Shown: piece after piece, positions 8,301 through 54,739 of the stretch
Layout of the letters: each line of letters begins with the position of its first letter
Numbering within the stretch: the first letter of the stretch is position 1
Assembly: GCA_044892525.1 (NCBI GenBank)
Contig: CM097885.1
Span: 30,320,001-30,384,000, forward strand
Reading direction: 5' to 3'
Length of the DNA: 64,000 nucleotides
DNA from: Schmidtea polychroa
Lineage: Eukaryota
Notes under the pieces: generated by a model
Database searches by the model: none
Seen by the model: only the letters and a program-made list of their open reading frames with translations
What the model was told of the DNA's origin: nothing
Program-made: the position numbers and the translations under genes

Positions 8301-11300
8301 TGTATTTTTCTTGTCGTCGGGCTGACTCCAATACTGCCCTCCTTATCAAATAGACCGTAACTGCAAAAATACACTTAGGAGATAAATAGCAAAACGTTCA
8401 AGCATACCACCGCCATGAGCAGATACGGTCGATGTAAGTAATCAAATTTCTAAGGCCTCGGACTAGATACGGTCTTATCGCTAAGCAGAATGAAGGTTAA
8501 TTGCAACTGCATACAGTTGACGCCTCTAACTCGATTTTTGTAGTTTTGTCAGTTACGGTCTATTTGATAAGGAGGGCAGAATAGCTTTGGTGATTTTAGA
8601 GAAATCAAAAGTTAAAACTTCAAAAACTGCACTTTTTTCTTGAAAAATTGTAAAATATTGTAAAAACGGAAAGACGGGAGATTTACATCTCCCGGGTCAT
8701 AGTTAACCTGGAGATGGGGGACGAAAGCCCATTCCGGGAGACTCCCGGCAAAAACGGGAGAGTTAACAAAGCTATCCGCAATGACATTAAGAAAAAGTAG
8801 AACTCTGTTTATTTGAAATATAAATTATCGTTTTGAAATTATTTTAATCAATTGGGGGATTAAAGCTATTTTGACTATTGTTATTAATAGAAACCTCGAC
8901 GTTCATACCAACAATTTAATTTCAATGGTTTGGACCTGATAAGGTAATTTCCTCGCTAATAAAGATTATGTTAATCAAACTACGGCTACCTCATGATTAT
9001 AACGATAGTCTAAAAAAGAAACAGCCATTAATCAGTAAAACCAATCCTATGAAGATCATTATATTTTAACAATTGTTAAAAATTATAGTGTACATTACTT
9101 TGATGGAGTAATAAGTGCATTTAGGAATCAGAAGGATGCTGACACCCAGCGTTCCTTGAAGTTATAAAAAGGAGATAGCTATAAAGTTTATTATTCAATG
9201 ACTATTGTAGATTTGTACGAAATTTTGACTAATGAAGTTTAACGAATATAATAATTTAAATAAACGATCATCTGACACAAGCTGCAAAGAATGATGAAAA
9301 GTTTACAATCTTCAATGAAAATATTGTTAAATTTAGTACATATTAATTACTATTTTACCCATCATTGTTTAAAAATAAAAAGGAAACTAAAGAGATTACT
9401 TTAAAGTAAAGTTGTTGCACTAATTTTACGATTTGTTCCTAAATTTTTAAAATATAATTCAACAAAGTGCATTTCAATATTAGAATGATAAATAAAAAAA
9501 TAAAAAAAACAATTCTCAGCAAAAAAATTAATTTTTACAGTAATTAAAAAATATTATTCAAATTTTGCTATTCTCTTTCTCTCTCATACCTCAGTGAAAA
9601 TTACTTGAAAATATAAACAAAAATATTATAAACAAAAAAAGGAAACAAATTATATATTTGCTTTGATTGGTCAAAATATTTACTTTTCTAATTAAGTTTT
9701 ATACTACTTTTTGCTATAAGTAAAGAAAATTGAAATGTTTTAATTGAAAATATACCCAACACAATTAATGAAGTTAGGAGATTCATAATTTTAAAACCTT
9801 TGAACAATAGGCAAGTTAGCTCGTTCTGTATTTCCGTACACGTCGTGCCACTCATACAAAATGAGTGCTTAATAACGCGTTTGACTTTGTAATAATTGTA
9901 CTATCTAAGATCGAGTGTTTAATGAGTAGGTGGTTAGTAGCCCCGGCAGCACGACCACTCGGTCAACCCCCTATCTCCCTAGAAAATTCTTTTATAATTG
10001 CTGTCGGGGCCACAGTACATTTTTTCAAATTTATACTATAGTGTGGGCGTCTCTTTGGACCATTAGAATTTATTGTACACAAAATCCCGGTCTCGCTAAA
10101 AAGCTACTGCTGCCGGGGGCTACACTATTTGGTCTTCTTTGGTCTCTGGATTTTTCTATTATTTAAAAAATATATAGTTGGTATAATTCACAAATGCTAT
10201 GTTTGTAAAATATGTGCCACATGTGAAAATATTTGCAACTTTTGTAGGCCTTATACACCAGTTTGCACTGAATAAACGCATCTATAATATGGCTTGGTGT
10301 GTACAACCCGTATTATAGGCGCGCCATAATTTGTGATGGAATGTATTCAGTTTCAGATGGATTTTCAAACAATTTCAATGTAATCATTATGTATTTCTGA
10401 TGAAATAGTTAATTTATGATTAACTATTTTAGCCATTTTAGAAATGGCTTTCAAGTAATTTTGAATTTTTAAATATGCCTTTGAGAATTGAACATATGAT
10501 AATAGACATTTTGTCTTTAAACGACAAGAAACATGGACTCAGTATCCTGGAACCGGTAAAATCAATTACATTCAAAAGTTAAGATGGTCGAAAGATAAAG
10601 GTTACATTTACAGAGGAATTGGTTGCAAAACACAGCCAGTTATAAAACTAAAACCCTAAAGGATGAAATTCATGTATTAAATGAATAAGGACAAGTTTTG
10701 TTTTTGCCAAGGTAATTTCCGATTATACTCGATCTTGTTATGTTTTGTTTATTCTTAAGTAAATCCAAAGTAAATTTGTGTAATAGTGAAAACATATCGG
10801 TTTATCATTTATAAAATAATGTTTAGAAAAGAAAATTAAATGCGTTATTTTTGTTTAAATTTACAGATTTTAGAAAGTTTAAAATTTGTCATTAAATAAA
10901 ATCCATCTATATTTAATAGTGATATATCTTTACAGTATGTTTGCCAAATTGTGTTTTCTAACTCACTGGTAAGGGGATCACATTGCAGATTTCCATATGT
11001 AGTCAGCATATATTCCATATTATTTCATTTAATTGAATTAAATTCGTGAAATATGTTTGTTTTAATTTACTAAACTCGATGAATAATGAAATATTTAATG
11101 TTTTTTTAATATACTTGATTAAAGATGATTATGTTAAGGTGTCAGAAGTGAGATCCTATAAATTGATTGAAACAATCTTCTGCAGGTAAGAATTCCCGAT
11201 TATTCTTCAAATGACAAAAAGTAGATACATCATTCGAATGATTTAATATCAGAATGACAATTACAAAATACGAGTTGCATTCAATAAGTACCCGGACTAG

Positions 11301-12920
11301 GTGCTAAAGGAAACCAACAGGAACGGTATATTTTAACATAAGAGCAATGAGGGTTTGTGGGCTTCTTCAATACGATGCAAGAGTTCCAAAAAAGCATTTT
11401 TTAATTTTTCTTTATAAGCCTGGATAAATAAAAATCGCTGTAGGAGGATGATCTAAGAGAACAAATCCATTTTTTTCAATCAGTGCCTGTGTTTCGACAC
11501 TTTTGTGGATTGGAGCGTCTTAGAGAAACCATAAAAGGGGTTCACTTGGCTTTCGGCGATTACATTTGTATGTATCCACAATGTTACTGTAGTAGGTGGA
11601 ATTAATTTGCAGACCTTTTCAGTGAAATTCATAAAGATTAAGCCACTGTGATCCCATAAAATTATGAGTATCATTTATTTTTGATGGCATGTTCTAGATC
11701 TCATCTTTCTAGAACTCGTTTCTCCATGAAATTTAGATTCAATGGACTGACACTTTGTCTCAGGAACATACTATAATAAAGGAGCTTCATCTATATGTTC
11801 ATCAAAAATGAGAAAGTTTGCCTGGTTTACAAACATATCAGGGGAAAGAAAACCTGGATGGCATGCACACATCTGGTACTCACGTTCAACCGCTGTGAGT
11901 GATATCTGATAATGATTTGGAGTTTTCCCTTCACAATTTTTTACTAACCAACTTTCTCTTCATCAAACACAGACTAGCTACTAGTTGGAACTGGCTAATC
12001 CAATCGTCGATTGTGGTACTGGAGGGACATTTATTCCCATAAATTGTCTGCAATTGATTCGATATTTGAGGATTGTTATCATCACGCAAAACAAAGAATT
12101 TAATTACATTTCGATTTGTTTACTCTTTTTTGCTATTGGTGAGTTAAATTTTTCTTCCAGCGTTTTTTATTTAGAATTTCGAGTAATATATTGTTTGTCC
12201 CAAGCAGCACAAAACTATTCGCAGGTGATTAATGAATTAATAATATATATATATATATATATATATATATATATATATATATATATATATATATATATAT
12301 ATATATATATATATATATATATATATATATATATATATATATATATATATATATATATATATATATATATATATATAAAGGTTTATTTTTGCAATCATTA
12401 ATTTTATTCAGAGTTTTTCAGGAAATTATGATGGAAAAACATATTAAAATAATGAATATTATTGATAAATAAAAATAATTATTTGGGAAAAATAAGAAGT
12501 TAAAAAATAAAAAGTTATCTAACCGGATCAGTTACAACTCCAAGCCCATCATAATATATTACTCCCAATTGAAACATACATTGAAAATCGCCAATTTTAT
12601 CCACACCACCTTTAAAGTAAAATATACTTTCTTGATATTCTTCCTATAATATAAAAATATATATTTTTAAAATTTTGAAAACATTTACTCTATACCTTAT
12701 CAAAAAACAGTTGGCCGAGTTGGAAATATGCTTCATTATGGCCACTATATAATTGATTAACGAAATAAACTTCTAATTTGCTATTTAAAATATGTTCATT
12801 AAATTTATCTTTTTCGTCGATTATTCCTTTTCCAACAAGTTCATCAACAATGTTAGACTTGAATTCACATTTTTCGACTTTTACATTAATGCCTTTATTA
12901 ACAATTGGACTATTTAACAT
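2400..12920 (-). CDS. LRP2BP: LRP2-binding protein (SEL1-like repeats), spliced, 3' end not located. Exons 12920-12696, 12643-12524, 6535-6390, 2781-2624, 2571-2400
   Basis: GT-AG junctions join in frame: [29 protein letters not shown]..|[89 protein letters not shown]. Colinear with LRP2BP motifs I recognise ([28 protein letters not shown]). Confidence 0.9.
3370..3625 (+). pseudogene. hAT transposase C-terminal dimerisation-domain remnant (in LRP2BP intron)
   Basis: Degenerate [34 protein letters not shown], typical of ZMYM-like hAT C-termini; frameshifted. Confidence 0.65.
4020..5347 (+). mobile_element. Internally deleted hAT element; left boundary uncertain
   Basis: TAGAG at 4020 and TTGCAAACTCTA at 5336-5347; subterminal AACCG/CGGTT repeats at 5265-5335; contains a transposase-derived ORF. 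Confidence 0.6.
4499..5047 (+). pseudogene. hAT transposase deletion derivative, 182-aa ORF
   Basis: N-terminal SAVWEYF (start of a BED finger) fused in frame to [16 protein letters not shown] (hAT dimerisation domain); catalytic core missing. Confidence 0.8.
7470..7565. mobile_element. DNA-transposon (hAT-like) end fragment; partial second copy at 7815-7847
   Basis: CCGCGGAGCACA(C/G)TTTGA(G/A)AACCCCTG-like end occurs twice; GC-rich against the background. Confidence 0.45.
8072..8774. mobile_element. hAT-type MITE with a nested insertion
   Basis: Imperfect TIRs (TAAAGGTTGCCAACTC / GAGTTAACAAAGCTA), internal CGGGAGA repeats, 8-bp flanking duplication TCTGCAAT / TCCGCAAT (1 mismatch). Confidence 0.65.
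8334..8579. mobile_element. 246-bp MITE with perfect 30-bp TIRs
   Basis: CTGCCCTCCTTATCAAATAGACCGTAACTG at 8334-8363 and its reverse complement at 8550-8579; AATA on both flanks. Confidence 0.85.
9925..10128 (+). mobile_element. Relic terminus / mini-derivative of the AGTAGG-ended family
   Basis: Starts AGTAGGTGGTTAGTAGCCCCGGCAGCA, similar to 54397 AGTAGGGAGTTAGTGGCCCACGGCAGCA; ends in an imperfect inverted copy TGCTGCCGGGGGCTACACTA. Confidence 0.6.
11270..12100 (-). mobile_element. Degenerate mariner-like element; boundaries approximate
   Basis: TACGAG..CATTCAATAAGT mariner-type end at 11270; minus-strand remnant [20 protein letters not shown] resembles the mariner K.M..(V/I)FWD..G motif. 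Confidence 0.6.
12244..12377. repeat. (TA)n microsatellite
   Basis: Pure TA run seen directly. Confidence 0.97.
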
Positions 12921-53925: not shown

Positions 53926-54739
53926 AGCTCGTTGACTTGAAGATAGTTATGGTCGATTACAGCGGAAAACAGCTGAAGAATGGAAACAGAAGTTCTGTAT
54001 CAAGTTTGTGACTTGCTGTAATGGAAAAAAAATTTTTTTTGTTAAATGTAACTACAAATTATTATTTTACATTTTATTATTTTATTATTATGCTTTTTCT
54101 TGGAGTAGCTTGTGTCGTTACCGCAATATGTATTCATGCCCAATATCGTTTGGATTTCAAATGAGCAATTTTAAGACAGTTAATAGAAAATTATTAAACT
54201 TTTAAAATTATTCATGTGAAAAATTACATTCTAATAATCATTCAAAAAAAATATTAAAAAGTATTTTTCCATTTCATTATTAAATATTTCTCTTTCATCT
54301 TCCTTGTAATAGAAATTCGATTTTCCAATATAACTAGCTTCCTATCTAAATGTTGAGTGTATCTTAATGATTGAAAGCTATCAATTATGCATTATTAGTA
54401 GGGAGTTAGTGGCCCACGGCAGCAATAGGGGGGGGGGGTAAAAAATGTTGCAAACTTTTGATTGCATAACTTTTTCCGTAGACATTTTTTGATTACATAA
54501 TTGTTGCCGTAATGCCCAATGTTTTCTGGGATTTTAAATACAAATTTTTTTTTTTTTTTTTTTTTTCAATAAACAAGCCAAGGATAAATATTATTTGGGT
54601 GGGTCTCCTTGGTCCTGAGAATTTCAATAGAAAAAGGTAGTCTTCAATAAAAAAGCATGGATTTTTCACACTATAGTGAGGGGATCTTCTTGGTCATGAG
54701 AATTTCAATAGAAAAGGTGGTTTACATTAAAAAACGCAT

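Follow-up and report, generated by a model that had tools for sequence, protein, structure and literature searches.

The six element ends that share an AGTAGG-type motif in a 64,000-nucleotide stretch of Schmidtea polychroa DNA (contig CM097885.1; hereafter the window) are, in our view quite probably, the termini of Polinton/Maverick elements and of their offspring, which were likely integrated by the integrase of full-length Polintons (in trans in the case of gene-poor copies), the palindromic forms among them having probably arisen via fold-back. The evidence comes from the ends themselves, from full-length families in the same genome, from target-site duplications and from the symmetry of the palindrome arms.

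Element ends in the window

All six end sequences quoted in the sequence-only reading of this DNA were located, at 9925(+), 26629(-), 38576(+), 49246(-), 49539(+) and 54397(+), and the features to which they belong are collected in Table 1. The 9-base motif AGTAGG(T/G)(A/G)G occurs 8 times in the window versus 0.33 expected (100 Markov simulations, maximum 2 occurrences in any), and two of these occurrences (11591 and 24837) are not element ends. Genome-wide, a longer end pattern gave 661+628 matches and its reversed control 0+0; end 9925 and the ends of element B lie outside this pattern, and B-type ends gave 48+38 matches to a pattern of their own. AGTAGT-type ends account for ~1100 further matches. 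The extra AGT in front of the right end of B is not supported as a trace of slide-back, since it occurs at the chance rate: such a triplet stands before 2/69 of the B ends listed and before 1/100 of the others, with ~3/169 expected from base composition (our own arithmetic).

Table 1. Polinton-type features of the window (positions are those of the window; a dot marks features without strand)
Feature	Position	Strand	Remarks
Lone, decayed end stub, Polinton-type	9925..10128	+	~205 first bases 77-79% like other end-like loci
Element A, remnant of an old gene-less fold-back	14960..26629	.	self-comparison; tiling by gene-less fold-back copies
Element B, putative one-off fold-back of the full-length family B polymerase end	38576..49246	.	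no target duplication
Family-B polymerase gene, 5' part, B left arm	42023..43585	+	520 aa, truncated
Turn of B	43525..43783	.	mapped on three other B copies
Family-B polymerase gene, 5' part, B right arm	43732..45705	-	657 aa, truncated
Element C, lone decayed left end with subterminal repeats, F-type end group	49539..50680	+	~1.1 kb
Left target duplication of D, ATTATT	54391..54396	+	right copy 68004-68009, outside the window
Element D	54397..64000, on to 68003	.	13.6-kb palindrome, arms 98.9% alike
D polymerase gene	55813..59625	-	PF03175 domain
Unpaired centre of this D copy	61180..61267	.	88 bases
D polymerase gene, mirror copy, start	62822..64000	+	open frame, on to 66634

The two-ended elements are B and D, the right end of the latter (68003) lying beyond the window, so that within the window a target duplication could be scored for one two-ended element, B. 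The earlier observation that no target duplication is visible holds inside the window only, as D has ATTATT at both ends, the right one beyond the window. None of the ends 9925, 26629 and 49539 has a partner. The 9925 stub passes after ~200 bases into an unrelated repeat, and pairing of 9925 with 26629 was rejected, since their end subtypes are unlike, the arm is not shared and the flanks match at 1/6 positions. Element A has its centre at ~19200, arms 77-85% alike and its right end at 26629, its outer left portion being gone; its subterminal sequence is 74-80% like the ends of family F. A right end to match the left end of C was searched for up to window position 82000 and none was seen, and nesting of D within C was dismissed, as C stops ~3.7 kb short of D.

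Full-length Polinton families of the genome

The ends in the window match those of full-length families (family F in the case of A, C and D, and family B in the case of element B). Polymerase, integrase, ATPase, protease and capsid-like genes are present in families B, F, G and H; terminal inverted repeats with an AG-starting end motif (AGTAGG or AGTAGT) and a TBP-like gene are also found in full-length families. Family F was traced from the one of 21 examined F-type two-ended interiors in which Polinton genes were present. It gave at least 119 near-identical gene hits, and 5 of the 6 fetched copies are two-ended, 16.7-17.9 kb long and bounded by ends of the A/C/D type; its genes encode an integrase, an ATPase, capsid-like proteins, a protease and a D-type polymerase. 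The integrase frame of F is broken at one identical place in 7/7 copies seen.

The polymerases of the full-length families show 52-89% identity to the PF03175 polymerase of D. The integrase was recognized by rve (1e-7 and 6e-8) together with a chromodomain, and the integrases of G and H are 64-69% and that of F 73-75% identical to it; the packaging ATPase matched Pox_A32 (1e-6) and the adenain-like protease Peptidase_C5 (1e-6). A Pfam search of the capsid-like proteins gave no match; in the Atlas, a 407-aa protein scored 0.98 with a PF21738 DJR-like cluster, and for a 355-aa protein unnamed clusters of Preplasmiviricota scored 0.97, both under the recognition mark of the tool. Two separate 60-residue Pfam queries were likewise negative.

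Target-site duplications

Exact 6-bp duplications were found at 59 of the 69 end pairs scored from fetched DNA (54/64, plus 5/5 of family F), whereas shuffled pairing gave 0.24 expected (maximum 3); exact duplications of 4, 5, 7 or 8 bp were absent among the end pairs scored. Another 13 of 13 pairs, whose flanks were taken from search listings, have a 6-bp duplication (one via the outer of two right ends), which gives 72/82 overall. AGTAGG-type ends alone carry an exact duplication at 54/63 pairs, and the counts by family are: B 15/16, F 5/5, H 1/1, Y 17/18 and D 11/11. Among the 10/69 pairs without an exact duplication, 3 differ by one mismatch, two represent one duplicated locus, and the others (one each) are the non-pair 9925/26629, a pair with mirrored flanks, B, a Y copy and a pair of unlike ends. 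The pairs were picked by spacing or gene hits from lists, mostly of contig C1, and are not a random sample; the unselected first 30 loci contained 9 pairs, of which 4 had exact duplications and 2 had one mismatch.

Duplications of 6 bp are given as a defining feature of Mavericks in the relevant part of PMC8097293. The two-ended copies which carry them were therefore likely inserted by the retrovirus-like integrase of full-length Polintons. Integrase-independent insertion, which the sequence-only reading had proposed as the rule, does not stand against 6-bp duplications in most two-ended copies, an outcome which that reading had itself named as its refutation; in addition, an rve/chromo integrase is encoded by full-length elements that share these ends.

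Elements B and D

The arms of B (38576-43529 and 44199-49246) differ by 3 substitutions over 4699 aligned bases, and contain polymerase frames only, with no integrase or capsid module in window B. Its turn comprises a deletion joint with a 5-base overlap (43525-43529). The strand switch lies between two inverted 9-base copies (43544-43552 and 43775-43783). As reported earlier, the flanks CAAAAT and ACTGTA are not duplicated, with no common word >6 bases in the 40 bases on either side, and B is the sole copy without a duplication among 16 of its family. An X5 contig (another run) tracks the left flank of B to 38576 and then continues with 394 unlike letters; thus, an empty allele of the B locus exists. 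The X5 match reaches one base into B, as would be expected if the right flank had been joined bluntly. A paralogous empty site was rejected, because the left flank is single-copy and the right flank enters an old repeat unlike the left flank. B is thus a real exception, which could stem from a repair-type or aberrant insertion, its target duplication having been either lost or never formed.

The D family comprises ~140 end pairs. The only long frame of each D arm is the polymerase gene, and in 11/11 copies polymerase frames alone were found, an integrase and a capsid module being absent. Over 4 kb the arm shares ~91% identity with the family F polymerase end. Ten other D copies have a centre of 563-990 bases, which is a small element with family-Y ends; in all 10 of these undeleted centres the Y-type ends meet the arms at one fixed junction, with flanks inverted and not direct. 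By sequence comparison, D is evidently the family F polymerase end mirrored about a small element from a different family. With ends and sequence in common with full-length F and an integrase footprint, it is evidently a non-autonomous Polinton derivative.

The D polymerase contains a predicted terminal-protein-like domain (model pLDDT 82.5). Ser221, the predicted linking residue, which lies between helix 2 and the last strand of this domain, is conserved in 81/82 homologues, and the active-site vOTU residues Cys272 and His376 in 82/82, consistent with a polymerase of TP-vOTU-exo-pol layout. Its best viral matches are adintovirus/MELD PolB. Structural matches to Y-family polymerases are weak (E ~0.01-0.05), as described in PMC11161782; a PDB sequence search gave no match and a PDB fold search nothing at E 0.001. 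The PF03175 domain and the predicted terminal-protein-like domain support the earlier proposal of Polinton-type ends that are likely protein-primed origins. Within AGTAGG only AG is repeated (positions 1-2 and 4-5). According to a section of PMC5175343, the repeat used by adenovirus is three bases long while Bam35 jumps with one, and by analogy jump-back initiation may be possible at AGTAGG ends.

Differences in the D polymerase gene are 47 synonymous versus 34 non-synonymous, 20% synonymous being expected. Since 52/64 differences between two D subfamilies are F alleles, in clustered tracts, this signal may be inherited via recombination, and we do not count it as proof of selection within the palindrome lineage.

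Origin of the palindromes

Fold-back copying is the likely source of the 14-kb mirror-image offspring, as suggested by the symmetry of their arms. In D, 256/269 variable columns are symmetric, and the arms differ on average by 1.3 positions inside one copy versus 70.8 between copies; in 5/5 gene-less Y copies, an arm is nearer to its own partner than to the arms of other copies. At least 4 lineages have given rise to fold-backs of the polymerase end, three of them with duplications (D, G and J). In the proposed course of events, drawn from genomic sequence, the polymerase's own terminal-protein domain would prime copying at each end, and a single strand would be released through strand displacement. 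Pairing within a short inverted microhomology (B), or between the terminal repeats of a small nested element (D), would fold the freed strand back, and its extension would then give a molecule carrying one end twice. This palindrome, with both ends correct, would be copied and integrated as its parent, rounds on the folded strand would equalise its arms, and later decay would leave lone ends, i.e. 9925, 26629 and 49539. It is also conceivable, and we hold this with slightly less than even confidence, that Polinton copying routinely proceeds via a folded single strand, one arm overwriting the other, that giant palindromes are thereby generated again and again, and that one of them, D, has become a separate, half-autonomous class, a 14-kb mirror-image replicon which supplies terminal protein and polymerase itself and borrows the integrase alone.

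The symmetry of the arms could also originate from chromosomal gene conversion or from assembly. Long chromosomal palindromes undergo conversion, and arms of elements inserted by an integrase might afterwards be kept alike in this way and not by copying of the free element; D and F do seem to swap tracts (the above 52/64 differences). However, the arms of older copies are merely 77-87% alike, so in-place conversion does not keep pace, and both the copying signature at the turn of B and the sharp ending of the long D arms at the first bases of the nested element argue against this explanation, which we consider unlikely. Perfect palindromes trouble long-read data, one copy has mirrored flanks and no short-read contig spans the centre of D, as would fit giant palindromes, or arm identity, that are artefacts of assembly or long-read fold-back; this is nevertheless improbable, given that 11/11 D copies have distinct unique flanks with matching 6-bp duplications, that 11 variants are confined to one arm, and that the conserved unpaired centre occurs in both orientations and the inner ends are unlike between arms.

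Two further explanations concern the system as a whole. Some Y copies (L123-L128) have integrase, ATPase, capsid-like and protease genes and no polymerase hit, as would be expected if polymerase-only palindromes and polymerase-less integrase/capsid elements were mutually dependent, but complete elements are present in Y (L155-L156), F, G and H, which rules out a two-part system in its strict form and makes such dependence highly improbable. Entry of protein-primed linear molecules into the chromosome by break repair, without integrase or target duplication, would explain window B, which has no duplication and whose X5 empty allele would fit a blunt join, as well as the copy with mirrored flanks, resembling those described for integrase-free linear plasmids in part of PMC1864894. 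As a general route it is refuted by the 72/82 exact duplications (including 15/16 in family B and 11/11 in D), and we regard it as extremely improbable.

Comparison with known systems

Non-autonomous elements with terminal inverted repeats include MITEs, Foldback-type elements and non-autonomous Polintons (Repbase). The offspring described here likewise move in trans, share their ends with an autonomous family and have long inverted arms in which tandem repeats abound, but they are 10-18 kb long, their helper is a self-synthesising virus-like element and the arms of D hold an open polymerase gene. Snap-back defective genomes and panhandle intermediates are known for protein-primed replicons (adenovirus, PRD1). 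In the panhandle, the displaced strand pairs through its inverted repeats, which is proposed to restore end homology, direct evidence being described as lacking in the pertinent section of PMC11886824; here, in contrast, the products sit in the chromosome with integrase footprints, as high-copy families. The known model for an integrase-free route is provided by invertron-type mitochondrial plasmids (pAL2-1, kalilo). They are protein-primed linear DNA with terminal repeats, and new inverted repeats are made on both sides of their integrated copies (PMC1864894, in part), whereas the elements studied here have clean 6-bp direct duplications (59/69) and mirrored flanks at 1/69 pairs.

Animal Polinton/Maverick elements (adintoviruses, Alpha PolB class, PF03175) likewise have AG-starting ends, 6-bp target duplications, full-length copies of 16-18 kb, terminal repeats of ~0.5-1.3 kb and the same polymerase, rve integrase, A32-like ATPase, adenain-like protease and capsid-like genes, as stated in portions of PMC8097293 and PMC8502044. 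Mavericks end in (AGT)2/(AG)3 and intact vertebrate copies have arms of 46-1447 bp (PMC8097293, in part), whereas the ends here are AGTAGG in B, F, G and H and AGTAGT in Y, and the arms of the offspring are 4-7 kb. D also differs in retaining two polymerase genes and nothing more, and the full-length families in their TBP-like gene.

Significance

Palindromic polymerase-only Polintons were absent from the titles and abstract openings searched; a prior description may exist elsewhere. Integrase-free insertion, if true, would have shown Polinton-like DNA to enter chromosomes in a new way, and this claim fails. To our knowledge, the mechanism by which Polintons copy themselves has not yet been shown. 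The genome combines young full-length Polintons with palindromic offspring in the hundreds. As the turn points of these offspring and the variants in their arms are readable, the panhandle model becomes testable, both from sequence and in DNA extracted from the host, and the co-varying arms of D, if the fold-back reading is true, would preserve in the genome a trace of the panhandle intermediate proposed for protein-primed replication. For the genome of the host, these palindromes contribute megabases of fragile DNA that is difficult to assemble.

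Element ends and target site duplications

The six AGTAGG ends reported by the sequence-only reading were all found at their positions, and the window contains 8 matches to the 9-base end motif, compared with 0.33 expected (two matches are not element ends). At the level of the whole assembly (781 Mb, AT-rich), a longer end pattern gave 1289 matches and its reversed control 0; there were 86 matches for B-type ends, 144 + 143 for D-type ends and 565 + 563 for a related AGTAGT type, part of the latter lying within D centres. The extra AGT noted before one end occurs at about the chance rate (2/69 and 1/100 among the ends listed in two listings).

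Features of the window and of fetched loci (L numbers)
Feature	Position	Remarks
End stub	9925	~200 bases; unrelated DNA directly after
Dispersed repeat	10252-10473	~220 bases, immediately behind the stub; many copies at 75-95%
Element A	~14960-26629	old gene-less fold-back closed by end 26629; outer left portion gone
Element B	38576-49246	both ends present, no duplication
Element C	from 49539	decayed end sequence, ~1.1 kb; no right end up to 82000
Element D	54397 to 68003	right end outside window; ATTATT on both sides
EndoVII-like zinc-binding insert	57890-58000	aa 543-578 of D polymerase, exonuclease region
Motif matches, not ends	11591; 24837	
Host F-box/leucine-rich-repeat gene pieces	32373-33236; 37686-38096	directly left of B
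hAT transposase C-terminal fragments	4499-5047; 35533-35943	
Imperfect palindrome	27494-27649	156 bases, 88%
TBP-like gene	L089:3697-4158; L123:4514-4975	also at the corresponding sites of families F, G, H
Element resembling C	L175:2194-3617	1.4 kb; F-type (A/C/D-type) ends, 6-bp duplication
Palindrome with mirrored host flanks	L048-L049 (G000:C1:35791844-35801664)	no direct duplication

Since the other ends are unpaired or have their partner outside the window, B was the only element that could be scored within it, and B is the exception to the duplication rule. The earlier statement that no duplication is visible holds only inside the window. Fetched DNA yielded 64 end pairs (chosen by spacing or gene hits, mainly on one contig), of which 54 carry an exact 6-bp duplication and none an exact duplication of 4, 5, 7 or 8 bases, with 0.24 exact 6-bp duplications expected from shuffled pairing (maximum 3 in 10,000). 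These are: F-type ends, 12/19 (one mismatch in 3 more); B, 11/12 (in one copy with two left ends, the outer one was scored); D, 11/11 (one in a microsatellite); Y, 17/18; G, H and the fold-back lineage J, 1/1 each; and the 9925/26629 non-pair, 0/1. The two D centres L158 and L159 were excluded, as were pairs showing one flank only. The 54 duplicated words comprise 51 distinct ones and show a weak, symmetric preference for A/T. Further exact duplications were found in 5/5 two-ended family F copies (in a sixth no left end was found) and, by hand count from flanks in search listings, in 4/4 B pairs and 9/9 non-B pairs (one via the outer of two right ends), giving 72/82 pairs overall and 54/63 for AGTAGG ends alone. 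Of 100 longer-pattern ends among the matches listed, about half lack a listed partner at a distance of up to 45 kb.

The 72/82 pairs refute the proposed integrase-free entry as the general route, and the insertions were almost certainly made by an integrase. Invertron plasmids offer a precedent for integrase-free insertion (PMC1864894), but their insertion signature is rare among the elements studied here. Blunt capture of a single copy was considered for the B element of the window alone, for which an empty allele exists in another sequencing run (X5); the element lacks a duplication, nearly all scored B pairs carry one, and we regard such capture as rather unlikely. The mirrored flanks of L048-L049 are like those of invertron plasmid insertions or of an assembly fold-back.

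Full-length families

All 10 fetched copies of family B carry the polymerase, and most also encode an rve/chromo integrase, an A32-like ATPase, capsid-like genes, a protease and a TBP-like gene; most copies have a broken polymerase frame or carry deletions. Complete gene sets occur in families G, H and Y. In Y copies L123-L128 no polymerase hit was obtained; they carry an integrase, an ATPase and capsid-like genes, in two cases also a protease, and have 6-bp duplications. Family F, discovered within 1/21 F-type interiors, is represented in the genome by at least 119 near-identical gene hits. Six fetched copies hold the whole gene set, with a polymerase that shares 83-89% identity with that of D; in five of them, both A/C/D-type ends are present. 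The integrase frame is interrupted at the identical place in 7/7 copies (L202, L226-L241), which also have a putative minor capsid gene in two tandem copies. For the full-length families, capsid identity is putative, being based on Atlas scores under the recognition mark. The TBP-like gene (154 aa; PF00352, 1e-15) lies head to head with the ATPase in the full-length families. Elements often lie within or beside other Polinton-type elements (L002, L005, L008-L010, L046-L047, L137-L138, L169, L243), a raw observation not set against element density.

Fold-back elements

The 11 D copies analysed (13.4-15.2 kb) are palindromes with arms of 6.2-7.1 kb that are 98.9-99.8% alike, and their sole long frame is the polymerase, full-length in both arms of 7/11 copies. 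Among the matches listed, 88 of 100 D-type ends make 44 pairs, 42 of them spaced 12.8-15.4 kb (hand count), and the 601-aa catalytic part of the polymerase matches at 100% in at least 73 places. The arm's outer 5.3 kb consists of the polymerase end of family F (91% over 4 kb). At the centre, 10/11 copies hold a small Y-ended element in either orientation, with one fixed joining point and mirrored flanks; the window copy has lost it. The window's B element maps onto a single end of family B; it shows a deletion with a 5-base overlap, and its strand switch has as turn point a 9-base inverted pair whose members lie 230 bases apart. Polymerase-end palindromes have arisen also in G and J and integrase-end ones in Y, and gene-less palindromes are common. 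In some elements, terminal repeats partly lengthened to 4.4-4.7 kb flank an intact core module; integrase-end fold-backs and elements with lengthened repeats were seen at L129-L140, L149-L150 and L217-L218.

The arms co-vary. Comparison of both arms of 10 D copies (20 arms; a further copy was excluded for its deleted left end) gave 5264 gap-free columns, of which 269 are variable: 256 symmetric (174 supplied by one divergent copy), 11 one-arm-only and 2 mixed. Arms differ on average by 1.3 within a copy and by 70.8 between copies. The same pattern was seen in five gene-less copies of Y and two of F type; arms of old copies are 77-87% alike. No short-read contig spans the D centre. Polymerase differences show an excess of synonymous (47) over non-synonymous (34) changes, but since a good part of this excess follows F alleles lying in tracts, it does not cleanly indicate selection in D.

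Polymerase and priming

In its C-terminal half, D's polymerase matches PF03175 (1e-22) with intact motifs. The model of residues 1-575 (pLDDT 82.5) best matches adintovirus and MELD polymerases and weakly matches Y-family polymerases, a pattern described for terminal-protein domains in PMC11161782. In this model Ser221 lies between the second helix and the last strand, and it is conserved in 81/82 homologues; vOTU Cys272 and His376 occur in 82/82. The earlier view of the ends as Polinton-type and protein-primed is supported, protein priming as likely, by the PF03175 match and the predicted terminal-protein-like features. Slide-back or jump-back initiation, for which known schemes are given in PMC5175343, is possible at AGTAGG ends, which repeat two bases only. 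The EndoVII-like insert matches PF02945 below the cut-off, and around it lies a cluster of differences between the D copies.

Proposed origin of the fold-back elements

Copying would involve priming at both element ends, strand displacement and fold-back extension of the strand, followed by integration in trans; panhandles are a proposed, unproven intermediate according to PMC11886824. We lean towards the view that the arms are alike owing to fold-back copying, and consider the whole explanation (Polinton ends, integrase-made insertions and fold-back offspring) quite probable. Mavericks as a rule have ends and duplications of this sort (PMC8097293, PMC8502044 and PMC6431247). In intact vertebrate Mavericks the repeats are given as 46-1447 bp (PMC8097293), a range that the fold-back arms here, at 4-7 kb, exceed. 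A literature search of titles and abstract openings, with the founding Polinton papers outside its scope, turned up no mention of palindromic polymerase-only Polintons.
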